Assembly (NCBI GenBank): GCA_963768165.1
Contig: CAVYHJ010000002.1
Location: 128,676 to 192,675, forward strand
Direction of reading: 5' to 3'
Source of the DNA: an uncultured bacterium
GTDB taxonomy: Bacteria; UBP4; UBA4092
Length of the DNA stretch: 64,000 nucleotides
The first letter of the stretch is position 1. Every line of letters begins with the position of its first letter. The notes beneath the pieces were generated by a model that was not told where the DNA came from, ran no database searches, and worked only from the letters and a program-made list of their open reading frames with translations. Positions 19,117 through 61,920 of this stretch are shown piece after piece. Made by a program: the position numbers and the translations under genes.

Positions 19117-19120
19117 ATCC

Positions 19121-19536: not shown

Positions 19537-19589
19537 TCTAATTATTAATATGAAATTGTAAAGCGAAAACTAAATAAAGGGGACATACC

Positions 19590-22601: not shown

Positions 22602-23408
22602 ATGAAGAAATGTCCATATTGCTTTAGCGAAATAGATGAAAGAGCTATTCTTTGCCCAAATTGCCGAAAGAAGGTAGGTGCTATGGGAAAAGACGGAATA
22701 GCAACAAAACCTAAGGGATGTTGGATAGCATTACTTGTTATAGCAATTGTTTTAATTGTTTTCACCGCTTTTGTAGTATTAATTATCTTGTTTAACAGAG
22801 TAGTATCTTCTAGTAGTTCTACAACTACTTCCATATCAAAACCTTCAAAAGAACTGACTCCAGAGCAAAAAGCAATTGCAAGTAAATTCCAAATTACTGG
22901 TCGTTACAATACTTTTGGTCGTAGTGGTGATGACGAATTAGCATTATTAATGCCGAAGAACAGTTCAAAAGAAGATTTGAAATCATTGATCCTTACCTTA
23001 AGACAAGTCCGGCAGGATAATAATTTCATTAAATTTGGAATCCCACCTACAACTCCAGAAGGTCATTTCGATGAAAGTGCACCTATGTTTCGTAATTTCC
23101 ATAAATTATATGGTAATTATGCACTAATTGTAATCTATGTATTTACTGATCCTGAATGGGCAACTAGTGATAATTTGAGAAAATTTGATTCACCTACTGA
23201 TTCAGAATTTGAAGATAAACTTTACCACCGAAATTTTATCCCAGAATTTTCTCAACATGTGAAAGCATTTTATTGGTGGCAGGCATACCCGTATGAATGT
23301 GAAATAGGTACTTTGGGTTTCAAGAGCAATATATCAGAATTCAATGCCGATAAAGACCAGGGAGCCAATTACGAGGCACTTTTTAATTACAGAGAGAAAG
23401 GTAAATAA
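22602..23408 (+). CDS. Hypothetical membrane-anchored protein with an N-terminal zinc ribbon (CPYC...CPNC), one TM helix, a Ser/Thr linker and a C-terminal domain of about 180 aa with no recognised family.
   Basis: ORF with a GAAAGGTG RBS. It lies in an AT-rich (about 33% GC) block. Confidence 0.5.
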   Translation: MKKCPYCFSEIDERAILCPNCRKKVGAMGKDGIATKPKGCWIALLVIAIVLIVFTAFVVLIILFNRVVSSSSSTTTSISKPSKELTPEQKAIASKFQITGRYNTFGRSGDDELALLMPKNSSKEDLKSLILTLRQVRQDNNFIKFGIPPTTPEGHFDESAPMFRNFHKLYGNYALIVIYVFTDPEWATSDNLRKFDSPTDSEFEDKLYHRNFIPEFSQHVKAFYWWQAYPYECEIGTLGFKSNISEFNADKDQGANYEALFNYREKGK

Positions 23409-23549
23409 CTTTTTTGAAGAATATATTTCGATCTGAGAGCTCAAATATAGCTCAAGATGGATTATTTATGGTTATAAAACAAATGAAGTATCAATGGAAA
23501 AGTGGGAGAAAAAGTGGTTTTGCCATCGTTGCGGAGAGGTGTTTGATTT

Positions 23550-24293
23550 ATGATTGATCAACATGAAATATTTACAAAGTTTCTAAAAGATCATCTTAAT
23601 TCCTCCATTTTTTTAGACGAAATTTTGCCTAAGAAAGAAGAGAAGGCTGATTTCCTCTTATACAATAAACAAATAATTTCTGAACTTAAGGAATTACAAA
23701 AGGATCATACTAGCAAAATTATTAGTTTTTCAAAAAGATATTCAAGTGAAAATAATATTACTCCACGGCAAATACAATTAAATCCCATAGAGTATCGAAA
23801 ATTTTTAAAGTTAGCCAATGAACGATTAACGCGGAAATTAACGCATACATTATTTCATGATATTAATAAGGCGAACACGCAGATACAAAGTACAAGGGAG
23901 TATTTGAAAAATGATCCACGATACTCAAATATTTATAATATACCGGGAATGGTTATTATTATAAATAGTTCTGACAATGCTCTTTTGGCAAAAATAGCAT
24001 TACAAGCATTAATCAGAAAACTTGGTTTTTCGTCATCTAGGAAGAAATTAATTTGTAGTAATATCAAGGTATGTTTTTATATATCATTATGCTTTGAACC
24101 CATTACTCTTGATGGGAACCAAATGCCGTCAGTTGTTATAATTAATAGAGTATTTAATAATGAACACCAATTAAGCAGATCCAATTTAGATTTTATTAAA
24201 CACTTAAGGGCTTTGTGGATTATGAAATTTGTTAAGTCAAAGAGTTTTAGAACACCTCCAAGTACAAATATTGATGGGTGTGCTATACAATAA
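23550..24293 (+). CDS. Hypothetical protein (247 aa) with no recognised family, in the same AT-rich block.
   Basis: ORF only. The low GC suggests horizontal acquisition. Confidence 0.4.
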   Translation: MIDQHEIFTKFLKDHLNSSIFLDEILPKKEEKADFLLYNKQIISELKELQKDHTSKIISFSKRYSSENNITPRQIQLNPIEYRKFLKLANERLTRKLTHTLFHDINKANTQIQSTREYLKNDPRYSNIYNIPGMVIIINSSDNALLAKIALQALIRKLGFSSSRKKLICSNIKVCFYISLCFEPITLDGNQMPSVVIINRVFNNEHQLSRSNLDFIKHLRALWIMKFVKSKSFRTPPSTNIDGCAIQ

Positions 24294-24406
24294 AATAAAA
24301 AATATGTCCCGATATGAGAATCGGGAATAGATGTGGAAGAGGTTCCCGACGTCACAAAATAATTCTTCTACAAATGCAGAATTACTCCCCTTGGCTGAAA
24401 TCCGCC

Positions 24407-24430
24407 AGCTTTCTGCGACCGTAGAAAGTT
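24407..24430. promoter_or_regulatory. Imperfect operator-like palindrome AGCTTTCTGCGACCGTAGAAAGTT, a member of the AAACTTTCY-N8-RGAAAGTTT motif family.
   Basis: Inverted arms CTTTCT/AGAAAG with an 8-bp spacer. It lies 83 bp upstream of the perfect site. Confidence 0.4.
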
Positions 24431-24456
24431 TATAATACTAATCAACTCAGTCTTAG

Positions 24457-24640
24457 AGAAAACCTTTGACATTTGAGATCACTGAAAAAGTGACTTTCTC
24501 TATCTTTTTAAAAAACTTTCTGCAATTGCAGAAAGTTTATCTCCAATGAAATCAAGTGTTTAGAATAATTGTACGTTCGCACAATTATTATTTTCCACAT
24601 AAATTGGACTTTTTCAGAGGTCTCATTTGTCAAAGGTTTT
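24457..24640. repeat. Structured element of about 185 bp bounded by 32-bp imperfect terminal inverted repeats (AAAACCTTTGACATTTGAGATCACTGAAAAAG ... CTTTTTCAGAGGTCTCATTTGTCAAAGGTTTT). The perfect 26-bp palindrome lies inside it.
   Basis: The arms match at about 28/32 positions as reverse complements. MITE-like or long-hairpin architecture. Confidence 0.5.
24513..24538. promoter_or_regulatory. Perfect 26-bp palindrome AAACTTTCTGCAATTGCAGAAAGTTT, a candidate dimeric-regulator operator upstream of the GH-like gene triplet.
   Basis: Exact reverse-complement symmetry. A same-length related site AAACTTTCCACGGTAGCGGAAAGTTT occurs at 42012-42037 upstream of a prepilin gene. Confidence 0.5.
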
Positions 24641-24728
24641 TAGAATGATCTAGTCGAAGAAAATTATCCTCATCTCCACCGACGATTCTTTTCAAATCCC
24701 CTGCCATCCATGCTATACTTTTATAGTC

Positions 24729-25787
24729 ATGATGAGCTGTGCCCAACGACGAGTTATAATTCCTTCCTGTTTTCTCATCGTCCTATTTTTATCCGTCTCC
24801 GGTCATAGCGATTCTTTCACTCCTGTCTGGCAAAAAGGCATGTCTTATGTCCCCTGGAGTTGGAGTATCCTATCCACCACGGATTCAAATTCTTCCATCC
24901 AGATAATGTCTTCTGATTCAATCCAATGGGTCGCCCTGTGCGATTTTTGGTTTCAAGCCAATGGGTCATCCACAACCATCGGTCCGGATGAGTCACGATA
25001 TAGTGCCAGCACCGAATCGATTAAATATGCCATCGATCAAATTCATGCCAATGGAATGAAAGTCATGTTAAAACCTATGGTAGATTTGGATAATGGAGTT
25101 TGGCGCGCGTATATCACACCTTCCAATGATTGGTTTTCCAGTTACTCCGCCTATATCCAGTTTTGGTCAGACCTGGCCACTGAGAAAAATGTGGATATGC
25201 TTTGTATCGGATGTGAATTTAAAGATACCCAATCTTGGGATTCCAGTTGGCGCATGATCGCCGCCACCGCTCGCGCTCATTATTCCGGACCCATTACTTA
25301 TGCTGCCAATCATGACGATTTTAACTATGTCACGTGGTGGGATGCGGTAGATTATATTGGGATTGATGCTTATTTTGCTTTAACCAATACGGATACACCC
25401 ACCCTCGAACAACTCTCCTCCGCATGGGATAACACAGCAAATTTCATTGAATCTTTCCGGAATTCCAACTTTCCTACAGAACAGGTAGTGTTTACAGAAA
25501 TCGGGTATCAAAGCGAGGATGGAACCAATGAAACCCCTTGGAATACGACCGGGGGTGCCGTTGATACCGCCGAACAACAACAGTGTTATGAAGCGTGTTT
25601 TGAAGTCATGACTCAGCGAAATTGGTTTGATGGTATGTATTGGTGGAACTGGGAAACCAGCCCTACTGCCGGTGGACCAAATGATAACGGGTTTACTCCC
25701 CAAAACAAACCTGCGGAAGCTACAGTAAAATTGTGGTATTCCAAAACCATCCCTTTGGTTCCTGTTGATGATTGGTATAAGTATTAG
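24729..25787 (+). CDS. Secreted putative glycoside hydrolase, clan GH-A-like TIM barrel (paralog 1 of 3).
   Basis: Signal peptide. Candidate acid/base Glu in the motif CIGCEF and nucleophile Glu in VFTEIGY. The WRMIAATARAHY motif is conserved across all three tandem paralogs. Assignment to a GH family is an inference. Confidence 0.5.
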   Translation: MMSCAQRRVIIPSCFLIVLFLSVSGHSDSFTPVWQKGMSYVPWSWSILSTTDSNSSIQIMSSDSIQWVALCDFWFQANGSSTTIGPDESRYSASTESIKYAIDQIHANGMKVMLKPMVDLDNGVWRAYITPSNDWFSSYSAYIQFWSDLATEKNVDMLCIGCEFKDTQSWDSSWRMIAATARAHYSGPITYAANHDDFNYVTWWDAVDYIGIDAYFALTNTDTPTLEQLSSAWDNTANFIESFRNSNFPTEQVVFTEIGYQSEDGTNETPWNTTGGAVDTAEQQQCYEACFEVMTQRNWFDGMYWWNWETSPTAGGPNDNGFTPQNKPAEATVKLWYSKTIPLVPVDDWYKY

Positions 25788-42146: not shown

Positions 42147-42776
42147 TTAAGGTATCCCGCCTGTTTTTTGAAGAGGATCAGCGCCGTATTTATTTTCACC
42201 GTTTGTTCCTGGAAGAAACCCCATCTCAATCAGATACCAGAGATTCAGGATTGGAACAATACCTACCAATATGAACCATCCACTTCGCCCTCTATCGTGG
42301 CATCGCTTCGCTAAGACGGCGAGCGATACCCAAATGAATAACCCAGAAATTAGGGTATATAAAATATAATAATATATAATCATAAGATACCTGTAATGGG
42401 TCCCCACTATGTAGTATACCATGACCCCTAGGTAGTAAAAAATATGGAAGCTACTTCGAAAAGAGAAGTCAAATAAGACAAGTAGAGTAAATACAATGGA
42501 GTATATATAATAAAGCCAAAAAGTTGTGCGTGAAATCCTGCCACGAAATGAAAAAGCAATTTGCTTAAGCGTTAAAGATGTGGTTATACGTACCTTTGAA
42601 TGTCCCATTTTTGCCAAAAAGAAACCACAAACTCCGGAGACGACGGCAAACCAAAATATATGGAAACTGAAAGGGTCTTCTTTAATGGCCACTCCGAATC
42701 CTTCGATAGAAAACAACATAATAAGTAAACCAATAACGAGTAATATCCATCCGATTACTTTATCAAATTTTTGCAT
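42147..42776 (-). CDS. DUF805 family inner-membrane protein.
   Basis: FRGRISRTTFW and C-terminal HDRGRSGWFIL...NKYGADP motifs typical of DUF805 (YhaH-like), with an extra N-terminal TM hairpin. Confidence 0.5.
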   Translation of the reverse strand: MQKFDKVIGWILLVIGLLIMLFSIEGFGVAIKEDPFSFHIFWFAVVSGVCGFFLAKMGHSKVRITTSLTLKQIAFSFRGRISRTTFWLYYIYSIVFTLLVLFDFSFRSSFHIFYYLGVMVYYIVGTHYRYLMIIYYYILYTLISGLFIWVSLAVLAKRCHDRGRSGWFILVGIVPILNLWYLIEMGFLPGTNGENKYGADPLQKTGGIP

Positions 42777-42975
42777 AGCAACATTCTTTATTTAAAATTG
42801 AAATCCTTACGTCTTTTGAATTAAGAATATTAGGTTCATAATTCACCTGTTTTTAAAAGCGTTTATTTTATCCCTCCTCTTCCCCCATGTCAATAGCCAC
42901 ATTTACTTGGTAAAATATTAATACTATCAAATAATAGGTTATTATAGAATATTTTCTATTAAAAACCGGTGGGGT

Positions 42976-43047
42976 ATCGGACGTGTTATTTTCACGTCCG
43001 ATTTTTCTGCGTCGGGAATGAAGTGTTTTTTAAGGATTTCCCGACGC
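42976..43047. repeat. Two adjacent hairpins: CGGACGTG-N7-CACGTCCG, followed by hairpin family B copy 2 (GCGTCGGGAA-N19-TTCCCGACGC).
   Basis: Read directly. They lie immediately 3' of the aminotransferase gene stop (minus strand). Confidence 0.6.
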
Positions 43048-43076
43048 TCTCATTACTTCTCATCCTGAATGAAGAA

Positions 43077-44399
43077 TTACCCTTTACTTACAATACCGAA
43101 AACCTCATCCAAGGTTTTGGAAATGAATTTAACATCGTCATCGGTAATGCAGAGCGGGGGTTTGATGCGGATGGTATTTCCTGCCATACCGCCTTTGCCG
43201 ACGAGGAGACCGCGGTCTTTGCAGAGTTCCATAATCTTGAGAGTTTCCTGGGGAGCGACTTCTTTGGAATCTTTGTCTTTGACGATTTCTATACCGAGCA
43301 TGAGCCCTTTTCCCCGGACATCGCCAACGATTTTATGTTTAGCTTTTAATTCGTTGAAGGATGCAATCAATTTATCGCCTTGCACTTTCGCGTTGTGGGC
43401 GTAGTCATATTTTTCAATCGTGTCCAGAACCGCGAGACCGCCTGCCATGGAGACAGGGTTTCCGCCGTAGGTATTGAAATGGACTTTCCCGCGCATGGAT
43501 TCAGCAATTTCTTTGGTGCAGGTGACACCGCCGAGAGGGATGCCATTGCCCATGCCTTTTGCCATAGTAATCATGTCAGGTTTGACGCCCGCTTGCTCGA
43601 TTCCCCAGAATTTATCACCCGTGCGCCCGAATCCTGTTTGCACTTCATCGGAAATAAAGAGACCGCCATAGCGTTTGACGATATCGTAAGCGACTTCAAA
43701 GTATTCCTTAGGTGGGTCAATGACTCCGCCGAATCCCTGGATAGGTTCGGCGATAAATGCAGCGATTTTACCAGAAGTACCGTATTTAATAATGTCTTCA
43801 ATCTCACGGGCACAGGCAATGTTACAACTGGGGTATTTCAATCCGAGAGGACAACGGTAACAGTACCCTGCGGGAGCGTGAAGAACTCCGAAAACATAAG
43901 GGAGCGAATGACGCCAGAGGGATTGACCGGTCATGCTCATTGCCATCAAGGTTCGACCGTGAAAAGAATGGCGCACGGCAATAAATTCCATATTTTTTGT
44001 ATAATTCTTGGCAAGCAATGCCGCGAGTTCATTGGCTTCCCCGCCGCTGTTGGTGAAGAAAGAAACTTTCAAACCTTCCGGCATGACCTGCGCGAGTTTC
44101 TCGGCATATTTGACGATGTTGGGATGGTAGTAGAGTGTGGTCATGTGCTGTAACTTCTTCATTTGTTCAATGACCGGGGAAGTCACATCGGGATGGCAAT
44201 GCCCGACACTGATGGTCACGACGGCAGAAAATCCGTCAAGATATTTTTTGCCTTTATCATCGAAGACATATTGCATTTCACCGCGAACGATGTTGGGCGT
44301 GCCTTGGAAATAGCGCATGGTACTGGGGAGTAAATATTCTTCCCGCATTTGAGCAATTTGTTCTGCCGTTAATTCCGGTTCGGTCATGGTCGTTGCCAT
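43077..44399 (-). CDS. Class-III (omega) pyridoxal-phosphate aminotransferase.
   Basis: Aspartate aminotransferase fold-type I class III signature, including the PLP-lysine region. It shares an unusual YCYRCPLGL...C..C motif with its paralog. Confidence 0.85.
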   Translation of the reverse strand: MATTMTEPELTAEQIAQMREEYLLPSTMRYFQGTPNIVRGEMQYVFDDKGKKYLDGFSAVVTISVGHCHPDVTSPVIEQMKKLQHMTTLYYHPNIVKYAEKLAQVMPEGLKVSFFTNSGGEANELAALLAKNYTKNMEFIAVRHSFHGRTLMAMSMTGQSLWRHSLPYVFGVLHAPAGYCYRCPLGLKYPSCNIACAREIEDIIKYGTSGKIAAFIAEPIQGFGGVIDPPKEYFEVAYDIVKRYGGLFISDEVQTGFGRTGDKFWGIEQAGVKPDMITMAKGMGNGIPLGGVTCTKEIAESMRGKVHFNTYGGNPVSMAGGLAVLDTIEKYDYAHNAKVQGDKLIASFNELKAKHKIVGDVRGKGLMLGIEIVKDKDSKEVAPQETLKIMELCKDRGLLVGKGGMAGNTIRIKPPLCITDDDVKFISKTLDEVFGIVSKG

Positions 44400-47373: not shown

Positions 47374-48243
47374 TTATAAAGCGACCAATGCATCGTAGGT
47401 TTCAGGACGCCGGTCACGAAAGAATTGCCAGACATTGCGAACTTCGTTAATCATATCGAAATCAATATCACCGACAACGACTTCGTCTTTATCCCTGCTG
47501 CCTTCCGCAATGATTTTTCCACGAGGGTTGCAGAAATAGGATTGTCCGTAGAATTCACCAATCTTCCAAGGCTTTTCCCAACCGACACGATTGATGGCGC
47601 CGATGAAATAGGTATTGGCAACGGCATGTGCCGGTTGTTCTAATTTCCAGAGATATTCGGAAAGTCCGGCTACAGTGGCGGAAGGATTAAACACAATTTC
47701 CGCGCCATTTAATCCTAAGGCTCTCGCACCCTCCGGGAAATGCCGGTCATAACAAATGTAAATCCCGACTTTGGCGAATTTGGTTTGAAACACAGGATAA
47801 CCCAAATTGCCCGGTTTGAAATAGAACTTTTCCCAGAACCCCGGATTGCAGTGGGGAATATGGCTCTTACGATATTTGCCAAGGTATTTTCCATCGGCAT
47901 CAATAATCGCCGCGGTATTATAAAGCACTCCTGCCATTTCCTGTTCATAAATCGGGATAATCAAAACCATTCCATATTTCTTGGCAATTTTTTGCATAAG
48001 GTGAATGGTTGGGCCGTCTGGAATTTGTTCTGCCGATTCATACCATTTGGTTTGTTGTTCCGCGCAGAAATAGGGACCATAAAATATTTCCTGCAGACAG
48101 ACCATTTTACATTTTTGTTTGGCGGCGTGTTCGATAAGTTTGAGGTGCTTATCAATCATCGCCTTTTTTATTTTTGCGACAGATTTTCCAGTGTCCTCCA
48201 CATTGGATGCCTGAATTAATCCGCATCGGACTATACGTGCCAT
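47374..48243 (-). CDS. Carbon-nitrogen hydrolase family amidase (beta-ureidopropionase / N-carbamoylputrescine amidase-like).
   Basis: Nitrilase-superfamily catalytic E-K-C context (LQEIF, YRKSHIP, IGIYICYDRHFPE). It is highly similar by motif to AguB-type and beta-alanine synthase enzymes. Confidence 0.8.
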   Translation of the reverse strand: MARIVRCGLIQASNVEDTGKSVAKIKKAMIDKHLKLIEHAAKQKCKMVCLQEIFYGPYFCAEQQTKWYESAEQIPDGPTIHLMQKIAKKYGMVLIIPIYEQEMAGVLYNTAAIIDADGKYLGKYRKSHIPHCNPGFWEKFYFKPGNLGYPVFQTKFAKVGIYICYDRHFPEGARALGLNGAEIVFNPSATVAGLSEYLWKLEQPAHAVANTYFIGAINRVGWEKPWKIGEFYGQSYFCNPRGKIIAEGSRDKDEVVVGDIDFDMINEVRNVWQFFRDRRPETYDALVAL

Positions 48244-48259
48244 AAAATCCTCCTAAATT

Positions 48260-48952
48260 TTATAGATTATGTCCCGGTCTTACAATAGATGCTGGTGCCG
48301 GATCACCATCGAAGATAATATATCCTTGTTTTCTTAATTTTTCTAATACACTTACAATTTTTTTAAATGAAAACCCCTTTCGAAGTAAACTGTCAACTAT
48401 CGAATCCATTTTTATATTTTCATCTTCTCCATGCCGAAAAATAAATTTGATCCTTGACATTGCGGCCCTCTCAATTACTTCATCTTCTGCCTCTATACTA
48501 ACGGCACTAGACTGACGTACTATTTGATCTAAAAATTTAGACGCTTGTTTTTGAACTTCATTTACATTTGCATCAGTTTTATCAATTCTTGTTAATAACT
48601 GTCCTAATTGTTGTGCGAATTGATTTTTTAAATGCTCCATTTTCTCCTCAGTACGTATTTCTACTTCGTCTTGTATGGAATCTTCACTAGGCTTCTCTTC
48701 TGTCCAAAGATGTTTTCTCATATCTGTCACTGTATCTTTCATCATCGTAAATGTATCTGTATATAATTTGTCAAATAGTTTTTCTAGTTTTTCCACACTA
48801 TTGCTAATCCTATCAGATGATTGTTTGATTTCCAGAGATGTCTTATCAGTCATCCGATAAAACACTATTGATAACCAGATTGCTCCAATACCAACAACCA
48901 ATGAAACAATCGAAGCAATCAATGAAACTAATTGTAAATTATCAAATTGCAT
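48260..48952 (-). CDS. Hypothetical protein with an N-terminal TM helix, a central coiled coil and a C-terminal winged-helix-like segment. It is an AT-rich insertion.
   Basis: ORF at about 33% GC, versus about 48% in the flanking genes. It is wedged between the hydrolase and the ALDH of an otherwise coherent catabolic array. Confidence 0.45.
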   Translation of the reverse strand: MQFDNLQLVSLIASIVSLVVGIGAIWLSIVFYRMTDKTSLEIKQSSDRISNSVEKLEKLFDKLYTDTFTMMKDTVTDMRKHLWTEEKPSEDSIQDEVEIRTEEKMEHLKNQFAQQLGQLLTRIDKTDANVNEVQKQASKFLDQIVRQSSAVSIEAEDEVIERAAMSRIKFIFRHGEDENIKMDSIVDSLLRKGFSFKKIVSVLEKLRKQGYIIFDGDPAPASIVRPGHNL

Positions 48953-48954
48953 AC

Positions 48955-50466
48955 TTAATAAATATTTGATTCTCTCTTTTTTCCAGAATATTCATAGAAT
49001 ACGGTTTTGAGTTCGGTAAAGAAATTAATACCTTCATCCGCCATTTCGCGGTTGCCGACACCCGTTTCTTTGATTCCACCAAAAGGAACCTGCGCTTCTC
49101 CGCCGATGGTCGCGGAATTAATGTGGGTCATGCCGGCTTCAATGCCATCAATAAAGCGCATGATATGGCTGGGGTTATTGCAGTAAATTGCAGAGGATAA
49201 TCCAAAGGTTACGGCATTGGCGGTCTCCAAGGCTTCCTCGAAATCTTTTACACGAATTATCGATAATACCGGCCCGAATACTTCTTCTTTAAATATTCTC
49301 ATTTTGGTTGTCACATGATCAAATACGGTCGGTGCCACAAAAAATCCTTTATCGTATTTGGCACCAGTCAAACGTTCCCCGCCAATTAGTTGTTTCGCGC
49401 CATCTTTTTTGGCAATATCAATGTATGCCAAATCGGTTTTCATTTGTTGTTCATCTACCGCCGGACCCATGAAGATGCCTTCTTCATCTCCCGGGCCGGT
49501 TTTAATTTTCTTAACACGGGCTAATAACATTTCCAGGAATTTATCGGCGATGGGTTTATGTAGAATCAATCTCGATGTGGCAGTACATCTCTGACCTGTT
49601 GAGCCGAACGCGCCCAAGATAACACCTTCCAAGGCGAGTTCTAAATCCGCGTCTTCCATGATGACCAAAGGATTTTTCCCGCCCATTTCACAGGTAACTT
49701 TTGCCAAATGTTTCATGGCTTGATGCGCGACTTGCGCTCCGGTCTCGCAGGAACCCGTGAAAGATACGGCTTTAATTCTTTTGTCATTGACGAAAACATC
49801 CCCGACATTCCCGCCGGAACCGATAACTAAATTCAGCACACCTTTGGGCAATCCCGCTTGTTCCAGGATTTCCACAAACTTAACCGCCATCAAGGGAGTG
49901 AGACTGGCAGGTTTGAAAACCACTGTATTGCCCGCGACCAATGCTGGTGCAATTTTCCAGCATGGAATTGAAAAGGGGAAATTCCACGGCGTGATAATAG
50001 AGACGACTCCCAAAGGTTGACGAAGAGTATATAGAAATGAATTGGTCATTTCCGAAGGAGCAGTAAAACCCTGTAACCGGAATCCCGAACCGGAATAATA
50101 CTCAATTAAATTAATCCCTTTTTGTACTTCACCGCGCGCTTCGGCTAATGTCTTTCCTTCCTCTCGTGTCATTACCCGCGCCAACTCTTCTTTTTTGTCA
50201 TACATTATTTGGGCGACTTTGGCGAAGATTCTGCCACGCGCAGGGGGAGGAGTATTGCGCCACATTGGAAACGTCTTTTCCGCGACTTCAATCGCCGAGA
50301 GCGCTTCTTCTCTTGTGGAGGACGGAAAATATCCAATCACATCGTCAGTATTGGCAGGGTTAATATCGTGGATATATTTCCCCGATGAGGAATCCACCCA
50401 TTCCCCATTGATATAATTTTTATACGTAGGTATGTTATTGGAATGAGGTTTATGTGCTGTTGCCAT
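48955..50466 (-). CDS. NAD(P)-dependent aldehyde dehydrogenase (semialdehyde dehydrogenase-like).
   Basis: ALDH family glutamate and cysteine active-site regions (ELGGKNP...GQRCTA). Confidence 0.85.
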   Translation of the reverse strand: MATAHKPHSNNIPTYKNYINGEWVDSSSGKYIHDINPANTDDVIGYFPSSTREEALSAIEVAEKTFPMWRNTPPPARGRIFAKVAQIMYDKKEELARVMTREEGKTLAEARGEVQKGINLIEYYSGSGFRLQGFTAPSEMTNSFLYTLRQPLGVVSIITPWNFPFSIPCWKIAPALVAGNTVVFKPASLTPLMAVKFVEILEQAGLPKGVLNLVIGSGGNVGDVFVNDKRIKAVSFTGSCETGAQVAHQAMKHLAKVTCEMGGKNPLVIMEDADLELALEGVILGAFGSTGQRCTATSRLILHKPIADKFLEMLLARVKKIKTGPGDEEGIFMGPAVDEQQMKTDLAYIDIAKKDGAKQLIGGERLTGAKYDKGFFVAPTVFDHVTTKMRIFKEEVFGPVLSIIRVKDFEEALETANAVTFGLSSAIYCNNPSHIMRFIDGIEAGMTHINSATIGGEAQVPFGGIKETGVGNREMADEGINFFTELKTVFYEYSGKKRESNIY

Positions 50467-50496: not shown

Positions 50497-51444
50497 TTAT
50501 TTTTTTATAAATTGCCGATAAAGCTCATCAGAAACCGTATACGGGTCAAGCTCTTTCCGTTCTATTTTTCCAATGAACTGCTTCACGCTAGCGTTTTTGT
50601 AAAAGTTTCTCAATATATCATTAACGGCGGTATTTTTCAAGCATTCCAGTACTTCTGCCATGACCTGTTCCCGCCGTCGAACTTCCAATTCTTCCGATTG
50701 GGAAAGTTCTTCCAAAACGTCTTGGATGGATTGGTAAAGCTTCTCTATTCCATCCCCAGTTATTCCCGAAACGGAAATGATTTTAGGGATTTTCTCGTCC
50801 GCGGGTTTCAGGTGATATTTCATTTCCAATTCCCGAAACACTAAGGTTGATTCTGGTTTATCGGATTTATTCACTACCAGAATATCCCCAATATCTACAA
50901 TACCGGATTTGGCGAATTGGATAGAGTCCCCCGAACCCGGACCGAAAACGACTACAGTCATATCGGCGACATCTTGAATTTCGATTTCATCCTGACCCGT
51001 GCCGACCGTCTCGATTAAGAGAATGTCAAAACCGGAGATATCCAGAGCGTGGAGAATCGGTCGAATGGTAGAAGTTAATCCCCCACGATGAGCCCGGCTC
51101 GCCAGACTACGAATGAAGACCGCATCATCTGCCGCATGTCTCTGCATTCGGATTCGGTCACCCAACAATGCTCCACCGCTCACGGGACTGGTCGGGTCAA
51201 CAGCAGTGACAGCAACCCGTTTCCCGTCTTTGCGGAAATGCTCAATTAATTTATCTACAAGAGTAGATTTCCCGACACCGGGTGGACCGGTAATCCCAAT
51301 CTTTTTGGCGTTGCCGGTTTTGGAATAAAGCTTTTTTAGCTTCTCAAACCCTTGAGGATTCCCGTTTTCCAAAAGGCTGATGAGTTTCGGCAACTCCGAT
51401 GGAGATAATACAGGAATGGGATTTTTTTGTTTGGGCTTAGACAT
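50497..51444 (-). CDS. meaB: Methylmalonyl-CoA mutase-associated G-protein chaperone (MeaB/ArgK).
   Basis: P-loop GITGPPGVGKST and the MeaB-type switch regions. The likely start ATG at 51444 overlaps the upstream gene's stop as ATGTCTAA, which suggests translational coupling. The ORF track extends to 51492. Confidence 0.8.
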   Translation of the reverse strand: MSKPKQKNPIPVLSPSELPKLISLLENGNPQGFEKLKKLYSKTGNAKKIGITGPPGVGKSTLVDKLIEHFRKDGKRVAVTAVDPTSPVSGGALLGDRIRMQRHAADDAVFIRSLASRAHRGGLTSTIRPILHALDISGFDILLIETVGTGQDEIEIQDVADMTVVVFGPGSGDSIQFAKSGIVDIGDILVVNKSDKPESTLVFRELEMKYHLKPADEKIPKIISVSGITGDGIEKLYQSIQDVLEELSQSEELEVRRREQVMAEVLECLKNTAVNDILRNFYKNASVKQFIGKIERKELDPYTVSDELYRQFIKK

Positions 51445-51832
51445 TTTTCTTGACGAATTCAACAATCTCATTGAGCGAACTCCCGGGACCAAAGATTTCC
51501 TTAACGCCCAGTTTCTTCATCTCTTTGATATCTTCGGGCGGAACAATCCCTCCGGCAAAAATTAAAATATCCCGTGCCTTTTCTTTTTTTAATAAATCAA
51601 TCACGTTCTTAAACGCCGTGCGATGCGCTCCCGACAAGGACGATAAACCAATGGCATCCACGTCTTCCTGAATGGCAGTCCGCACCACCTGTTCGGCAGT
51701 GTTCCGAATCCCGGTATAAATAACTTCCATGCCCGCGTCACGCAAAGCTTGGGCAACGACCATGGCTCCGCGCTCGTGTCCATCAAGACCGGATTTGGCG
51801 ATTAAAACCTTTATCGGCTTGCTTGTTTTCAT
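51437..51832 (-). CDS. Methylmalonyl-CoA mutase B12-binding subunit (stand-alone C-terminal domain).
   Basis: DGHERGAMVVA cobalamin-binding (DxHxxG) motif in a 131-aa stand-alone protein. Confidence 0.85.
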   Translation of the reverse strand: MKTSKPIKVLIAKSGLDGHERGAMVVAQALRDAGMEVIYTGIRNTAEQVVRTAIQEDVDAIGLSSLSGAHRTAFKNVIDLLKKEKARDILIFAGGIVPPEDIKEMKKLGVKEIFGPGSSLNEIVEFVKKNV

Positions 51833-51945
51833 CCAACAGATTATAGCATTGAGTGAGAAGATGTTAAATCAGTTAAATAGGTTATATAGGGCGTTGGTGA
51901 TATTATTTATTGGGGGAAATCAGGTGAAAGCTTATATTTTCTTTA

Positions 51946-52929
51946 TTAAGCAGGGAATCTTTGTATCCATGGAACATCTTTTGAGAACACACCTGGATTC
52001 CAACCGACTGCAGGTAACAAATCACCCAACGCTGATGCCAATTGTTCAAGTTTATGTTGTATAGCATTGTCATAGTGTGCTATTTCTTCACTTTCAGAAT
52101 TCAAAACACCAAATACAATACCTCTACCTTTAATGGGAACAACAATTTCCGATTTAGTCTCGATTATGGCTTGAAAATAATTTGATCTTTCATGGACATT
52201 ATTGGCATTTACTGTTTTCCCAGAAGAATACGCCAAACCTAATAAGCCTGCAAATGTGGCTATACGATATCTTTGTTTATGACGGGGAATCATATCTGCC
52301 ACAGCTACAAGTTGACTAGAATATGCAGATGTAATTATCAAAAATATCTGATTGTAGTCTGTTTCTGTAGTACGTACCAATTCATGTAAAGCAATCTCTA
52401 GAAGTTCAACCAAGTCACCCGAATTCTTTAAAAGATTAATATAAGAATTTTGTAATGTGTCAGGAGGATTTACTTGAGAAAGATATCTACCAATTGATGT
52501 TGCAATCTTAAATGCTAAATCTTCAGGGAATGTAAATTTATCATACATTAAATTCTTTCCTATTCGTGATTTAAAGGATTGCAATTTAGATTTACCCGGT
52601 TCATTTTCAATCATTTTGGGTGGCCAAGGATATTCATCATTAACAATAAAACAAAAGATGGGTTTTTGTAATTTCTTTGCATAATTATATTCCTGTTCAG
52701 TGATTGATAATTGTGTATCAGGTAATATATATCCATATCTATATGCATATATACCAACAAACAAATCACAGGATTCAATCTCTTTAAAACAAACCTGTAT
52801 TGGTTCCACCGGACGCGCACCTAATACCTCCATTCTGCCAAGATGATATCCTAGACGTTCTAAAGCCTCTGCTGCAGCTTTTCGATATTCTTTCAAGTCA
52901 ATATATGTAGAACTTAGAAATACATTCAT
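51946..52929 (-). CDS. DUF4062 (TIR/flavodoxin-like) N-terminal domain fused to a C-terminal GAF-like domain. It is the first gene of an AT-rich island.
   Basis: VFLSSTYIDLKEYR...SCDLFVGIYAYRYGYI matches the DUF4062 core. The C-terminal part has a GAF-like pattern (VFGVLNSESEE). About 33% GC. Confidence 0.5.
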   Translation of the reverse strand: MNVFLSSTYIDLKEYRKAAAEALERLGYHLGRMEVLGARPVEPIQVCFKEIESCDLFVGIYAYRYGYILPDTQLSITEQEYNYAKKLQKPIFCFIVNDEYPWPPKMIENEPGKSKLQSFKSRIGKNLMYDKFTFPEDLAFKIATSIGRYLSQVNPPDTLQNSYINLLKNSGDLVELLEIALHELVRTTETDYNQIFLIITSAYSSQLVAVADMIPRHKQRYRIATFAGLLGLAYSSGKTVNANNVHERSNYFQAIIETKSEIVVPIKGRGIVFGVLNSESEEIAHYDNAIQHKLEQLASALGDLLPAVGWNPGVFSKDVPWIQRFPA

Positions 52930-53027
52930 ATATTATTCATTTTTTGAGGTTGAAGTTCTACTGAAACGGAGCCAAGAAATGAAGTTTGAAATGAAATCTA
53001 TGTTATTCAATCTTTGACAGAACATAA

Positions 53028-53510
53028 TTAGATTAACTTATATGGAAAGAGTGTCTTATTCTCTTTATCCTGAAACACCTTATCACTATATAAGCCAAAT
53101 ACTTGTACTAATTGTTGTTGGCTAAATATAGCGGCTTTATTTAGACCCCATGTACCACCTCGACCTTTACTAAGATATTTGAAATCAAAATAACTAATTT
53201 TATAAATATCTTTAATCTCATTAGTTTCCCACATCATAGGAAGCCATGTGCCCTGCCATGGGTCAAGACCAACGATATGGAGTACTCTATAAATATCCTC
53301 ATCTTTTTTAGGAAAATTGTATGTAATATGCAATCTTCCATTATTACAATTCCTGCATAAATGCACCAATTTATCTTGGTTCCATCCATTTACATAAATA
53401 TCATCCCATAAAAAATAATAGATACTTATATGATTACATACTTCTTTAAAATTATTTATTCGATTATGTCCATAATCACATGTATCACATTCCCACCAAT
53501 AGCCAGCCAT
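53028..53510 (-). CDS. Hypothetical Cys-rich (putative zinc-ribbon) protein in the AT-rich island.
   Basis: CDTCDYGH and CRNCNNGRLH CxxC pairs. No recognised family. Confidence 0.4.
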   Translation of the reverse strand: MAGYWWECDTCDYGHNRINNFKEVCNHISIYYFLWDDIYVNGWNQDKLVHLCRNCNNGRLHITYNFPKKDEDIYRVLHIVGLDPWQGTWLPMMWETNEIKDIYKISYFDFKYLSKGRGGTWGLNKAAIFSQQQLVQVFGLYSDKVFQDKENKTLFPYKLI

Positions 53511-53582
53511 GTATTAACACCTTATTCTGTTGAGTGATGCGTTGCGAAATATAACCTGCCTCATTCTTGACATTGAAAAATA

Positions 53583-54404
53583 TTAGGTTACCTCTTGTGA
53601 TATTAACCTTAGAATAGAACCAGTTATATATAAATAGAATTCAACCAATCTTGGTTCAGGATTAGTCGGTATTTCTTGTTTCTTTTTTCCGTGTCGTGAG
53701 GAATATTCATGAGCAATTTTGCAATAGTGATGTAATATTTGACCCCAATGGCTATCAAGATTCAATTTTTGAATCAATTGATAGATTAATTTCTCGTCAT
53801 CAAGTGATTTGTTGGTTTGCAATATTGCTTTAACTATCCCTTCTAAAGCACTATATAAATTTGTAATTGCATCAGAATAATTATTTCTCAAATAAAAATT
53901 TAAAGCATTGGAGTATTTTTCTCTGCTATCTGGAAATTTGTCCAGCCATGCTAAATTTTCAATTATCAAAACGTCATCAAGTTCTGTAGCCCCTGACTTA
54001 ATAATATTTTTACCATCAAATCTAAAACCTATATTCAATACCATAGAATCGAATACATTTTTTATTTCAGATGAAAAATATTTGAACGCTGATGAAGAAC
54101 CTTGTTCCTGTTCAGATATATATGAATGAGAAATACTTAAAATCGCATGTAAAAGTATCATATTTTTTTCTATAGATCTATCGATATCTTGATAGTTGTT
54201 AATTAAATTTGTAAAGAACTCACCTGTTTTTGAACTCGGTAAGCCTAGTGTGAAAACCACTTGTTTATATAATCGTGAATAATTATGCATCCAATAGGTA
54301 TTGTCATGGTCTAATATGATTCTCAATCTATTCTTGAATCTTTCATATTCTTCTTCTAAATCCGTTTCAATTCCTAGATTTTTATAAATATTTTTTAAAC
54401 TCAT
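53583..54404 (-). CDS. Hypothetical 273-aa protein in the AT-rich island.
   Basis: ORF only. It has the same orientation and low GC as its neighbours. Confidence 0.4.
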   Translation of the reverse strand: MSLKNIYKNLGIETDLEEEYERFKNRLRIILDHDNTYWMHNYSRLYKQVVFTLGLPSSKTGEFFTNLINNYQDIDRSIEKNMILLHAILSISHSYISEQEQGSSSAFKYFSSEIKNVFDSMVLNIGFRFDGKNIIKSGATELDDVLIIENLAWLDKFPDSREKYSNALNFYLRNNYSDAITNLYSALEGIVKAILQTNKSLDDEKLIYQLIQKLNLDSHWGQILHHYCKIAHEYSSRHGKKKQEIPTNPEPRLVEFYLYITGSILRLISQEVT

Positions 54405-54556
54405 AATATTTCATTTATTCCCTTGTGTTAGAAACAAAGTAAATTTCTTAACGCTCTATTATACTGGATTCCAATTTGCATGGGAATGACAAAAGAGAAC
54501 TAACAAGGTCGGAAACAATTCAGATTAGAAATTGGATGGCAGATTAAAAAATGCTG

Positions 54557-54584
54557 TTGACAAAAAGGAAATTGGATGTATAAT
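54557..54584 (+). promoter_or_regulatory. Near-consensus sigma70 promoter (TTGACA, 16-bp spacer, TATAAT) in the island-edge noncoding region. No plus-strand ORF lies downstream of it.
   Basis: Read directly. It is followed by the 16-bp palindrome ATCATTTTAAAATGAT (54595-54610). Confidence 0.45.
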
Positions 54585-54630
54585 TTAAAGACAAATCATT
54601 TTAAAATGATGATAGTTGCATAAAAACAGT

Positions 54631-54663
54631 CATCGGGAAAGAGAAATGTGTTCATTCCCGATG
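54631..54663. repeat. Hairpin family B variant (CATCGGGAA-N15-TTCCCGATG).
   Basis: Same stem core, CGGGAA/TTCCCG, as the other three copies. Confidence 0.5.
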
Positions 54664-54839
54664 TGATTGGATGTTAAATTTAGTATAAGATGAAATTAGT
54701 TTGGGTGTGGAAATAGTTTAAAAGTGATTAAAAAGGGTAGTTTTGAGGGGTTTTTGTAAAAAAGCTACCTGCTCTCCTCGATAAGGACATTCGAGGACAA
54801 GTTTACAGTTTCAATCTAATCAATCCTCTATAAGGCAGG

Positions 54840-54865
54840 GATGAAGGAGATCGATCTCCTTCATC
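54840..54865. repeat. Perfect 26-bp palindrome GATGAAGGAGATCGATCTCCTTCATC.
   Basis: Exact reverse-complement symmetry. Confidence 0.9.
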
Positions 54866-54910
54866 CCAACTCCGCTTCATCTCCGTTTCTCCTCCGTTTC
54901 AAGTACGCTT

Positions 54911-54965
54911 CAGGTTCGTTTAAAAACCAGTTTAAGGTTTAAAGTTTAATGTTTACGGTTAACAG
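54911..54965. repeat. Iteron-like array of about 6 tandem GTTTAA(N) heptamers.
   Basis: GGTTCGTTTAAAAACCAGTTTAAGGTTTAAAGTTTAATGTTTACGGTTAAC shows a 7-bp periodicity. Confidence 0.6.
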
Positions 54966-55064
54966 AGGGGAGATAAGGGAAAGGATATTGGGAGAGGGCC
55001 GAAACAGAGAGACATTTTGGAGGGTTTGATGAATCAAACCCCTACAATTGGGTAGAAGAGAAGA

Positions 55065-56597
55065 TTAGAGAATGGTTGGGGGATGGTATTCGCCAAAAAG
55101 GGAGCGGAGGAGGGTGCAGATTTCACCCAAAGTGACTTTGTTTTTGACGGATTCTATAAGGATGGGCATTAAAGTGTCCGCAGTGCGGACACTTTTTTCC
55201 AATTTATCGAGACTTTGGTTGACTTTTTTCATATCCCGATTTTTTTTGAATTTAAGAACGCGTAGGCGTTGTTCTTTTTCGATTTTGAGATTTAATTTAA
55301 AGAGGGGAGGGTTGGAATCTTTTTGGGATTGGAAGGCATTGAGTCCCACAATGATTTGTTTTTTTGATTCGACCGCTTTTTGGTAATCATAGGCAGACTT
55401 GAATATTTCTTTTTGGACGTACCCGGATTCAATGGCTTTCAACATTCCACCCATTTGGTCAACCTTGGCAATATATTCGTTGGCTTCCCGTTCCAAGGTA
55501 TCGGTCAATTCTTCCACATAAAACGAACCTCCCAAAGGGTCGGGTTCATGGGTAACGCCTGATTCATAAGCGATGACTTGTTGAGTGCGAAGAGCAAGGA
55601 GAACGGAATTTTCCGTGGGCAGACCGAGGGCCTCATCTTTTGAGTTTGTATGCAGAGATTGACACCCGCCGAGAACCGCCGCGAGAGCTTGTAGGGTTGT
55701 ACGGACGACGTTGTTATCGGGTTGTTGCGCCGTGAGCGTGGAACCGGCAGTTTGGACATGAAAGCGCAAGAGTTGAGCGCGTTTCTCTTTGACCTTAAAA
55801 CGATGTTTGAGAATCTTCGCCCACATCCGGCGAGCGGCACGGAATTTGGCGACCTCTTCCAAGAAATTATTGTGGCAATTGAAAAAGAAAGCTATACGTT
55901 GCGCAGCGTGTTCGATGTTGACGCCGGCTTTTTTGGCAGCAGTGAGATAGGCGATGCCGTCCGAAAGCGTGAAAGCGAGTTCCTGCGCCGCGGTCGCACC
56001 CATTTCGCGCATGTGATACCCGCCGACACTGATAGTATTCCATTTGGGAACGTGCTGAACGCAAAATCCAACGAGGTCGGTAATCAGGCGGAGCGAAGGT
56101 TCGGGCGGGAAGATATAGGTGCCGCGCGCGATGTATTCTTTGAGAATATCGTTTTGAGTGGTGCCGGAAACTTTGTCCCAAGAGACTTTTTGTTGGTCAG
56201 CAACAGCGAGATAAAATGCCAACAAAATAGACGCGGTAGAGTTGATGGTCATGGAGGTAGAAACTTTATCAAGAGGGATGCCATGGAACAAGGTTTCCAT
56301 ATCTTCGATGGTGGAAATCGCGACCCCAACCCGACCGACTTCCCCTTTTGCCATGGGGTGGTCGGAGTCGTACCCGATTTGGGTCGGGAGGTCAAAGGCG
56401 ACGGAGAGCCCGGTTTGTCCCTGCTTGAGGAGATATTTGTAGCGAGTGTTGGATTCTTTGGCGTCACCGAACCCGGCGTATTGGCGCATAGTCCAGAGTT
56501 GTTTTTTGTACATCTCCGGATAGATACCGCGGGTGAAGGGGAATTCGCCGGGAGAGCCAATGTTCCAGTTGTGGTTTCGTTTTTTCATATATGCCAT
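55065..56597 (-). CDS. Methylmalonyl-CoA mutase catalytic (large, N-terminal TIM-barrel) subunit.
   Basis: The [24 protein letters not shown] and other MCM substrate-binding-barrel motifs. It is separated from its B12-binding partner by the AT-rich island. Confidence 0.9.
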
Positions 56598-56697: not shown

Positions 56698-56988
56698 TCA
56701 TAATATTTCTGCAAACAAATCCTGCCATTCAGGGTTTATGCTATTTACTAAATCAATCTTCTTCTGTCTTGAACCCGCCTTAATCTGTTTTTCGCGTTCG
56801 ATAGCCTGATCAATATAATCGTATTCTTCATAATAGACTAATTTATTCACATTATATTTTTTGGTAAATACACTTCCATGCTTTTCTTTATGTGAATCAA
56901 CCCTGCAATCCAGATTATTAGTTACACCCGTGTAAAGAACCGTATTGCGTTTGTTAGTCATAATATAAATATAGTAATTTCTACTCAT
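56698..56988 (-). CDS. Small GIY-YIG nuclease family protein.
   Basis: YYIYIMTN...LYTGVT...R...H N-terminal GIY-YIG motif in a 96-aa stand-alone protein. It is flanked on both sides by family F elements. Confidence 0.8.
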   Translation of the reverse strand: MSRNYYIYIMTNKRNTVLYTGVTNNLDCRVDSHKEKHGSVFTKKYNVNKLVYYEEYDYIDQAIEREKQIKAGSRQKKIDLVNSINPEWQDLFAEIL

Positions 56989-60931: not shown

Positions 60932-61119
60932 CAGAATTCCTCCTCTGCTGATAATAATACGCAAAGGCAAGAATATCGTCAATGTTTGCTCAAATGTAGT
61001 CCGATTCTATAAGAAATAAAAGCGAAAGAATACAAAGACTCTCCTTCTGGACTATAATATCTACAAGCTCCCCGGACAGGAGATATATAAATCAAGAGAA
61101 TGAAAGCGAAATATTTTTT

Positions 61120-61920
61120 ATGTTTGCAAAAATAATTACCGGATTTTTCTGGGACAGTTACGACAATTTGGGAAAGCTCTTAGTGGCGAATTTGGTTTGG
61201 TTTTTGTGTAACCTGCCAGGATTTATGTTGGGGTATGGGATATTTCATATACCCTTGAATCTATTTTGGATTTTTCTACTGCTCCCGTTTGCGTTATTTT
61301 CTGTTACCACTATGGGGCTGTATCATTTCACATCTCTCCTTGTAGAACAAAAGCAAATTGGAGTAAAAGAATTATTTCTCGGCATGAAAAAATACGGCGT
61401 GAGAGGAACTTTATACTCCTGTGTGCTTGTTTTGGGATTTTTTGTTTTATTGGTCAATATCGATTTTTATCTGAATCTATCGTTAGGATTTCACTGGATT
61501 GGCGCGATACTAGGGGGATTTGCTTTTTGGGTCAGTTTATTTATATTATTGGTTTGTCAATATTTTTTCCCGATATTAGTCAAACAGGATTTACCGATTA
61601 AAAAACTGTTATTGCGCTCCTCTCTTTTGGTTTTGGACAATTTCGGAATTAGCCTGTTGATTGCATTGAACTCACTGGGATTATTGATATTGACCATCAT
61701 AACCGGCGTAGGACCGATCCTGTTTACCATGTCTTTGTTTACCTTATTTGCCAACAACGCATTATATGAAGTACTGGCGAAATATGATAAACAACCGCAA
61801 CCGACCTTAAAACCGGGAGAGAAACCAACATCCTGGCATCAAATTTTGCCTAAAGAAAAGCCCAAATGGCGACATGAAAATCGAGGTTGGAAAGATATCT
61901 TACGACCTTGGGATATGTAG
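61120..61920 (+). CDS. Hypothetical integral membrane protein (about 6 TM helices; DUF624/YesL-like, uncertain).
   Basis: Hydrophobic helices only. Its stop codon TAG lies inside the family A palindrome. Confidence 0.45.
   Translation: MFAKIITGFFWDSYDNLGKLLVANLVWFLCNLPGFMLGYGIFHIPLNLFWIFLLLPFALFSVTTMGLYHFTSLLVEQKQIGVKELFLGMKKYGVRGTLYSCVLVLGFFVLLVNIDFYLNLSLGFHWIGAILGGFAFWVSLFILLVCQYFFPILVKQDLPIKKLLLRSSLLVLDNFGISLLIALNSLGLLILTIITGVGPILFTMSLFTLFANNALYEVLAKYDKQPQPTLKPGEKPTSWHQILPKEKPKWRHENRGWKDILRPWDM

Follow-up and report, generated by a model that had tools for sequence, protein, structure and literature searches.

The DNA analysed here is a stretch of 64,000 nucleotides (64 kb, referred to as the window) from an uncultured bacterium of the UBP4 lineage (contig CAVYHJ010000002.1, positions 128,676 to 192,675). 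Within it, the genes encoding the catalytic large subunit (mcmL) and the B12-binding small subunit (mcmS) of methylmalonyl-CoA mutase (MCM) are separated by an AT-rich island. Open reading frame (ORF) calling shows that the interval is filled by three complete genes on the minus strand, named here A, B, and C, which encode proteins of 327, 160, and 273 amino acids (Table 1). The island is probably a horizontally acquired islet of three stand-alone genes, of which gene A, where an N-terminal NIR (DUF4062) domain is joined to a C-terminal GAF domain, would encode a single-protein NIR-GAF abortive-infection device. An original prediction, made from the sequence by itself, had pointed to a low-GC insert that splits the MCM subunits and to three same-strand ORFs in it; both observations hold, and all three ORFs are intact.

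What does the island interrupt? The gene for MeaB lies directly after mcmS (PF03308, 1.5e-80), and genes for a glyoxalase-type epimerase-like protein and a family III CoA-transferase are found upstream of mcmL in the same transcriptional direction. Apart from the island, the order CoA-transferase, epimerase, mcmL, mcmS, meaB is intact, and the island interrupts an otherwise coherent propionate/methylmalonyl-CoA operon.

The AT-rich segment is compositionally foreign. The GC content of 51833-55064 is 32.3%, about 3.8 standard deviations below the window mean of 42.4% (standard deviation 2.7%), and is the minimum among all 3.2-kb intervals of the 64 kb. GC at third codon positions (GC3) is 0.21-0.24 in genes A, B, and C, compared with 0.44-0.54 in the operon genes on either side. 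At the right end of the gap, ~300 bp (54761-55064) have a native-like GC content of 43%; this part is therefore probably native spacer, and the foreign part is likely to span about 51833-54760. The 660-bp gap between gene C and the stop codon of mcmL contains no ORF of at least 50 amino acids.

Are the two MCM subunits usually encoded side by side? The mcmL gene was searched for among 185,579 species representatives, and 80 loci whose catalytic subunit is 54-63% identical were compared. The best matches, 63% identical, come from several phyla. The small subunit is found directly downstream of mcmL, at a distance of 20-270 bp, in about 10 of the 80 loci, among them the majority of the nearest ones (L014, L016, L018, L019, L020, L028, L031, and L034), and about 70 loci have no small subunit within 8 kb. 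Adjacency is a common ancestral arrangement and not a rule; the original statement that the subunits are normally adjacent is borne out by most of the closest loci but not by the set as a whole. The argument for insertion rests mainly on composition. In those of the 80 loci (L014-L093) that have adjacent subunits, the genes run mcmL-mcmS-epimerase, whereas in the window the epimerase-like gene is located upstream of mcmL. This comparison of MCM operons, which the original prediction had proposed as a check, found genes A, B, and C in none of the 80 loci.

Gene A joins a NIR domain to a GAF domain

The original prediction regarded the system at this locus as undescribed, a view overtaken by three preprints from 2026 in which DUF4062 was shown to be the NADase effector of single-gene anti-phage systems. 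DUF4062 is a TIR-like NADase that makes ADP-ribose and nicotinamide; in the single-gene system Swarozyc, the Klebsiella pneumoniae protein KpSwz needs both residue E97 and an auxiliary domain, and its activation by the phage portal results in abortive infection (Osinski et al., 10.64898/2026.05.01.722283). Evangelion has a DUF4062 core with F11 and E87-Y88 and an essential, diversified auxiliary domain (AUX) (Ibarra-Chavez et al., 10.64898/2026.06.25.731849). The domain has been renamed NIR and is found in Avs2, Vulcan (NIR-HEAT), and Vesta, whose two proteins are VstA, in which NIR is combined with a putative ligand-binding domain, and the phosphatase VstB; an enrichment of NIR genes in the vicinity of defence genes was also reported (Le Mouellic et al., 10.64898/2026.09.04.749371). 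The catalytic glutamates of NIR members are E97 in KpSwz, E87 in Eva01, E98 in Vulcan, E103 in VstA, and E108 in PsAvs2. The relation between DUF4062 and TIR lies at the level of the fold (10.64898/2026.05.01.722283; 10.64898/2026.09.04.749371).

The Pfam model of DUF4062 (PF13271) matches residues 3-84 of protein A with an E value of 3.9e-24 and a score of 85.1 bits (cut-off, 24.7); the match spans positions 2-82 of the 82-position profile. Protein A also matches the sequence of the KpSwz structure (PDB 10wc), over residues 2-150 as a single sequence (E=7.9e-6) and over residues 2-152 as a family profile (E=1.8e-13). The NIR domain of human TEP1 is matched at 1.8e-5, and PHROG 15411 matches the NIR domain of A at 1.6e-24. 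The Pfam TIR and TIR_2 models gave no match to A at E<=0.1.

Does protein A retain the residues expected of an active enzyme? In the alignment with KpSwz, E80 falls at position 97, where the solved construct carries Ala (E97A), and it is followed by Y81, as in the E87-Y88 motif of Eva01. In 26 full-length relatives of A, F4, S6, S7, T8, D11, S75, T77, and E80 are invariant; W102 is nearly so, and the match of F4 and W102 to F11 and W162 of Eva01 is positional only. Given the match to KpSwz, the placement of E80, and the invariant residues, protein A appears from its sequence to carry the defining features of an active NIR domain. The TIR-like catalytic glutamate that the original prediction had envisaged is in place by alignment with KpSwz; the geometry around it is likewise a prediction from alignment.

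Mean pairwise identity in the A family is 61% in the NIR half, 56% in the GAF half, and 27% in the linker. Among the matches listed there are about 38 full NIR-GAF proteins, which are 45-66% identical to A. The NIR domain of A, at 55-67% identity over about 150 residues, is also found fused to NUDIX, VRR_NUC, HEAT, and TPR C-termini, and to C-termini of no recognised family. These fusions indicate that sensors are apparently swapped frequently at a fixed junction, at residues ~150-185 of NIR proteins.

In the C-terminal half of A, the Pfam GAF and GAF_2 models match residues 172-303 with E values of 1e-5 to 1e-6 (GAF, 7.6e-6), and PF01590 (GAF) lies above its Pfam threshold (26.9 vs 22.4 bits). 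The predicted fusion of DUF4062 with GAF was thereby confirmed. The closest solved relatives are of the free methionine-R-sulfoxide reductase (fRMsr) type (Ta0848, 3mmh, 3rfb, 3ksf, YebR, and YKL069W), with profile E values of 3e-8 to 6e-5 (Ta0848, 3e-8; 3mmh, 5e-8; 3rfb, 1.2e-7); fRMsr/MsrC/YebR and the GAF domain of Ta0848 are the best structural-sequence relatives of this half (E=3e-8 to 4e-6). The pocket motifs SE(I/L)VVP and GVL(D/N)x(D/E)S are common to fRMsr and A. A T-x-T-D-Y-N-Q block is invariant in the GAF half of the A family, as are T188, T190, D191, Y192, N193, K218, E261, N277, and E279, and other strongly conserved pocket motifs are KQRYR, SE[IL]VVP, and NSESE. E261, N277, and E279 match Glu125, Asp141, and Asp143 of Neisseria meningitidis fRMsr, which we take to hold the amino-acid moiety of the substrate.

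A difference from fRMsr concerns its catalytic and recycling cysteines: the aligned positions are occupied by Leu and Ala in the A family, and L230 and A254 of A fall, within the matched stretch, at the positions of two cysteines of N. meningitidis fRMsr. No conserved Cys was found in the GAF half among the 26 relatives of A. The fRMsr enzymes need their cysteines (PMC6210582). Since a conserved Cys is missing from the A family, its GAF domain appears to be a binding module and not a reductase. The pattern of conservation would be more in keeping with a receptor whose small ligand is fixed than with a rapidly evolving sensor of phage proteins, and the strict conservation of the pocket makes a small molecule a more likely trigger than a phage structural protein. 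That the GAF pocket of A binds a small molecule as its trigger is nevertheless a tentative proposal.

The same GAF subtype was found on a viral (IMG/VR), phage-derived contig (L174), in a 498-residue protein (6963-8459, plus strand) with SLFN_AlbA_2 (2.6e-9), TIR_2 (2.2e-7), and GAF domains. Its GAF domain is 38% identical to that of A, and all signature motifs are common to both. Directly upstream lies a homolog of TmtA of the Tiamat system (3884-6958, plus strand; E=3.5e-138). A second scan of viral contigs with the GAF halves returned only this contig again. One GAF subtype thus seems to have been combined with two distinct effectors of the NADase type, each in a defence context. It is conceivable, if somewhat doubtful, that the cysteine-less, fRMsr-derived GAF serves as a receptor dedicated to small molecules, gates effectors that deplete NAD+, and was coupled to them independently at least twice. 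Candidate triggers might then include free methionine sulfoxide or a different derivative of an amino acid, as well as a nucleotide that is made or set free in the course of infection, and we name them with the same reserve. The NIR-GAF architecture, with a cysteine-less fRMsr-derived pocket that is also present on a TIR protein, is new here. The term "GAF" is absent from the main text of the three DUF4062 preprints and from one supplement, and a literature search found no paper combining a GAF domain, anti-phage function, and NADase.

How does A compare with the systems described so far? KpSwz (PDB 10wc, 11cq, and 11cv) is, like A, the product of a single gene with an N-terminal DUF4062 NADase and a C-terminal auxiliary sensor. 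However, the auxiliary region of KpSwz, in which no domain can be recognised, is a binder of the phage portal, whereas A has a GAF domain there, and A is excluded from Swarozyc sensu stricto because the similarity to KpSwz ends at about residue 152. Evangelion has in common with A the DUF4062 core, in which E87-Y88 corresponds to E80-Y81 and F11, by position, to F4, an auxiliary domain, which is required for defence, and the format of a single mobile gene. By contrast, its AUX is short and without a recognisable domain, it is plasmid-borne in Firmicutes and Proteobacteria, and its trigger is tied to phage replication proteins.

Some NIR relatives of A (55-63% identity) bear HEAT, as Vulcan does, but A itself has neither HEAT nor STAND. 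In Vesta, VstA is proposed to sense a small molecule via its C-terminal domain, as is A; however, the alkaline phosphatase partner encoded by vstB has no counterpart beside A in the window or in six of the seven genomic contexts of the family (the exception, L238, is described below). Avs2-NIR, Vulcan, Vesta, and A all present the same NIR effector in modular fusions. Thoeris ThsA is a ligand-gated NADase defence effector. In ThsA and in MisA of the Metis system, as is predicted for A, a small-molecule-binding domain controls an NAD+-depleting effector, but the effector and sensor folds are different and there is a separate partner that makes or degrades the signal, none of which is conserved beside A.

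Genes B and C and the independence of the three genes

Gene B encodes a small zinc-ribbon-like protein. The double CxxC noted in the original prediction is present at residues 8-11 and 52-55, together with invariant PMMWE, DFKY, and WGLNK motifs. Searches against Pfam, NCBIfam, PADLOC, PHROGs, and PDB sequences gave no match. A model predicted with confidence (predicted local distance difference test score, pLDDT, 82) consists of a zinc-knuckle, a beta-meander, and a C-terminal helix, and it had no convincing structural match in the PDB or BFVD. B may represent a new fold family, comprising 133 clusters, whose members turn up repeatedly in toxin-antitoxin hotspots. Its homologs occur singly among toxin-antitoxin genes, namely Uma2, DUF4160/DUF2442 with PIN, and ParE-like with PIN.

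The third protein had been described as having no detectable family. Profile searches showed instead that C matches PDC-S32 of PADLOC (E=1.8e-8, residues 132-247, the C-terminal half only), as do all eight members of the C family (best, 2e-11). A four-helix HEPN fold was found in this half, and there is a weak match to the HEPN part of Csx1/Csm6 (5e-4). PDC-S32 is a computational candidate for a single-gene defence system, and a literature search on it found no paper. HEPN-type abortive-infection proteins (AbiA with its C-terminal HEPN, AbiV, LsoA/RnlA, and HEPN toxins) differ from C in carrying the canonical Rx4-6H motif. This motif is absent from C, which has the invariant SRHGK instead, with no His 5-7 residues after the Arg. 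Unlike HEPN toxins, C is not adjoined by MNT or another antitoxin partner. Gene C probably encodes a stand-alone abortive-infection toxin, presumably of the RNase type.

Homologs of C also occur without A or B, beside a C5 DNA methylase (L010) and in an island of MmeI-type methylase, HNH, and PLD-SNF2-helicase genes (L008). In the latter (3157-12329), an MmeI-type methylase, the C homolog, an Eco57I_C-domain protein, an HNH protein, a 200-residue unknown protein, and a PLD and SNF2 helicase protein are encoded by overlapping or tightly packed genes, apparently one defence operon. The HEPN protein may, in this lineage, form part of a larger system.

Do the three genes belong together? The co-occurrence of A, B, and C was surveyed in 242 loci (2.3 Mb). 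All three were found together only in L001, a 3.4-kb read-assembly contig of the same organism that is identical to the window. The neighbours of A differ in all of its seven distinct contexts: the PDC-S32 relative (gene C) nearby in this window, a Suf operon (L002), a phage-like block (L005), MotAB and signalling genes, close to which a PIN toxin is encoded (L236), a restriction enzyme of the BglII type at a distance of two genes (L237; PADLOC REase_II, 1.2e-9), methylamine-methyltransferase genes (L238), and a site flanked by a TIR_2 protein on one side and a PDC-S35/PycTIR-like TIR effector on the other (L239, 6268-9375). Defence genes lie no more than two genes from A in three of the seven contexts (this window, L237, and L239); the published range is 20-50%, and the sample is too small for statistics.

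The contig L239 also has GT4-conflict glycosyltransferases, a CyanoTRADDas_TM protein, and a Y2 transposase, and represents a dense conflict island. On L238, a His_Phos_1 gene (8543-9157) follows the A homolog on the same strand, a situation found in one of the seven contexts; it is reminiscent of VstB and MisB, the phosphatases that serve as partners in Vesta and Metis.

The different neighbours in each context and the lack of co-occurrence across the 242 loci mean that A, B, and C are independent of each other and do not form one system. As far as these neighbourhoods allow a prediction, A appears to be a single-gene system with no obligatory partner and not part of a multi-gene system. The segment is best described as a small hotspot of three independent cargo genes, two of them from defence-associated families.

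Transcriptional layout and surroundings of the island

Promoter-like sites in and around the island are sigma-70 consensus matches only, which are not evidence of function. The region of the two hairpins between gene C and mcmL (54631-54769) folds with z=-4.2 on the minus strand, and the hairpins were not listed by a terminator scan because their loops exceed 8 nt. It is possible that they insulate the island from mcmL transcription. Taken together, the putative terminators, the site upstream of gene C, and the site before mcmS would let the island be transcribed alone and transcription of mcmS-meaB restart downstream. No Shine-Dalgarno sequence is found between the latter site and the ATG of mcmS, which would imply a leaderless mcmS-meaB transcript.

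The promoter-like site on the plus strand is the sole 12/12 match in the scanned region. The ~285 nt downstream of it are hairpin-rich and ORF-free, fold with z=-3.4 on the plus strand and z=-4.2 on the minus strand, and end at a perfect 30-nt palindrome. The stretch 54557-54875 had no family match in Rfam; on the plus strand it could be a small RNA or a mere terminator stack. In a wider Rfam search (the whole window at the gathering threshold, the 660-bp gap at E<=1), only chance-level miRNA and rRNA matches were obtained. Two weak arrays of tandem repeats with no evident significance are present in the gap.

The claim that the genes are carried on an inserted element could not be upheld: neither an integrase, a transposase, a tRNA gene, nor flanking repeats were found at the island. 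A scan for tRNA and tmRNA genes was empty, and the repeats found at the island were short and at chance level, with no target-site duplication. A larger defence island is not supported, as none of the ten proteins neighbouring the island matched a PADLOC model and all belong to metabolic or surface-protein Pfam families.

The neighbouring spacer of the operon, which separates the epimerase-like gene from mcmL, holds a second small AT-rich insertion: a gene (56698-56988, minus strand) with a GC content of 32% and a GC3 of 0.31 that encodes a stand-alone GIY-YIG nuclease-domain protein of 96 amino acids (PF01541, E=2e-17). Thus, the spacers of the MCM operon seem to accept small foreign genes. 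Other AT-rich patches of 33-36% GC are found at 22201-24800, 18801-20100, 42301-43100, 48101-49100, and 61001-61700; they encode a zinc-ribbon protein, a 247-residue unknown protein, the start of a papain/LVIVD surface protein, a DUF805 membrane protein, and a FapA-like protein. The proteins of these patches gave no matches to defence models.

Table 1. Features of the island and of the flanking MCM genes, in window coordinates.
Feature	Position	Strand	Description
Gene A	51946-52929	-	327 aa; predicted single-gene NIR(DUF4062)-GAF NADase defence protein
NIR/DUF4062 TIR-like NADase domain of A (predicted), residues 1-150	52480-52929	-	aligns with KpSwz chain residues 7-155
E80 codon (GAA) of A, predicted catalytic Glu	52690-52692	-	motif S75-I-T-E-Q-E80-Y81
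GAF domain of A, residues ~170-305	52015-52422	-	predicted sensor, fRMsr-like, cysteine-less; profile matches to 4mn7, 3mmh, 3rfb
Gene B	53028-53510	-	160 aa; CxxC...CxxC protein, orphan fold
Gene C	53583-54404	-	273 aa; C-terminal HEPN-fold domain, PADLOC PDC-S32 relative
HEPN-fold domain of C, residues ~137-272	53589-53996	-	
S236-R237-H238-G239-K240 motif of C	53685-53699	-	invariant, 8/8 family members; candidate active site
mcmS, MCM B12-binding small subunit	51437-51832	-	PF02310, E=4.2e-26
mcmL, MCM catalytic large subunit	55065-56597	-	PF01642, E=1.5e-212
Promoter-like TTCCCA-17-TATAAT	54458-54486	-	10/12; 54 nt upstream of gene C; possible island promoter
Hairpin and T-run, possible terminator	54663-54631	-	followed by ACTGTTTTT
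Hairpin and T-run, possible terminator	54769-54736	-	followed by CTTTTT
Sigma-70 match TTGACA-16-TATAAT	54557-54584	+	12/12; directed away from island, back to back with gene C site
Perfect 15+15 palindrome	54838-54867	.	GGGATGAAGGAGATC/GATCTCCTTCATCCC; unique in window, 0 expected by chance
Promoter-like TTAACA-16-TATAAT with TG (extended -10)	51840-51867	-	11/12; ends 7 nt before mcmS ATG

Alternative explanations and significance

What, then, might the island be and do? In the explanation that we consider probable, a small accessory or defence islet was acquired horizontally and landed in the mcmL-mcmS spacer. The combination of a sensor GAF with a TIR-like effector in defence, which the original prediction had ascribed to a larger module, remains the best reading for gene A by itself. 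The N-terminal TIR-like NADase of A, with E80 as the catalytic residue, would be held inactive until the C-terminal auxiliary domain senses infection. This auxiliary domain would be a GAF from the fRMsr lineage that lost its redox cysteines and kept a conserved pocket. Gene C, a HEPN-fold PDC-S32 relative, would act separately as a stand-alone RNase-type abortive-infection toxin.

Several points weigh against this explanation. For gene A, the NADase and defence activities are taken by analogy from the family literature, and the active-site geometry and the pocket are predicted from alignments. The PADLOC v2 models (2023) gave no match to A and hence no independent defence classification, and four of its seven contexts have no recognisable defence neighbour. 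The conserved GAF half would equally suit a housekeeping signalling role, and the roles of the fRMsr residues are presumed ones. In C, the SRHGK motif in place of Rx4-6H makes nuclease activity uncertain. With regard to insertion, no integration scar was found at the island, and the nearest mcmL found, at 63% identity, is too distant for a comparison with an empty site.

Three other explanations have to be considered. It is unlikely, but more plausible than the remaining two, that A is a metabolite-regulated housekeeping or stress enzyme, either a ligand-gated hydrolase of NAD+ or nucleotides or an enzyme resembling nucleoside deoxyribosyltransferases, whose GAF domain senses an endogenous metabolite such as oxidised methionine. 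The high conservation of the GAF half and its pocket (56% mean identity, with many invariant positions) would fit this idea, as it is unlike that of typical fast-evolving phage sensors, and so would the four contexts already mentioned; moreover, DUF4062 is distantly related to nucleoside 2-deoxyribosyltransferases (10.64898/2026.05.01.722283). However, the family has a patchy, sporadic distribution, and its neighbours change from genome to genome. In the window its gene lies in a foreign insert beside a HEPN defence candidate, elsewhere it lies between TIR effectors, and a TIR protein encoded next to a Tiamat gene carries the same GAF subtype. Furthermore, every bacterial DUF4062 protein so far tested is an anti-phage NADase, according to the three 2026 preprints.

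A cooperative defence or signalling system of A, B, and C, in which B might be an inhibitor or antitoxin and C a second effector, corresponds to the three-gene module with accessory proteins of the original prediction. It was rejected, since homologs of each gene occur alone and in unrelated neighbourhoods; the absent co-occurrence outside the contig of the same organism largely refutes it, and we consider it very improbable. The chance is slighter still that the segment is native, AT-rich, poorly conserved chromosome, in which the MCM genes were never adjacent and the ORFs are lineage-specific and of no particular coherence. The many related mcmL loci with no small subunit within 8 kb (~70 of 80), the other AT-rich patches in the window (for example, 22201-24800 and 18801-20100), and flanks free of mobility genes, tRNA, and direct repeats are consistent with such an origin. 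Against it, the break in GC3 from 0.21-0.24 to 0.44-0.54 is sharp and coincides with gene boundaries, the closest relatives of each protein are scattered over unrelated metagenomic contexts, and the order of the operon is otherwise intact, with mcmS located 20-270 bp after mcmL in most of the closest relatives.

If the horizontally acquired islet is accepted, the locus illustrates how tiny defence islets can be wedged into a core metabolic operon with no mobility genes. It also adds to the list of recurrent hotspot cargo a HEPN family (PDC-S32-like, with SRHGK) and an orphan-fold zinc-ribbon family. For gene A, the implications concern the NIR family as a whole. NIR/DUF4062 was recognised only in 2026 as a widespread NADase immune effector that is shared with human TEP1, and for each NIR system the key question is what the auxiliary domain senses. 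The NIR-GAF architecture offers a concrete route to a small-molecule trigger, as it has a conserved pocket, descends from an enzyme acting on a free amino-acid derivative, and has its GAF domain in common with a TIR effector; the isolated GAF domain of about 140 residues is amenable to a ligand search. If true, metabolite gating would bring a mode of sensing that is new to the NIR family, one with a tractable pocket and a trigger other than phage proteins.

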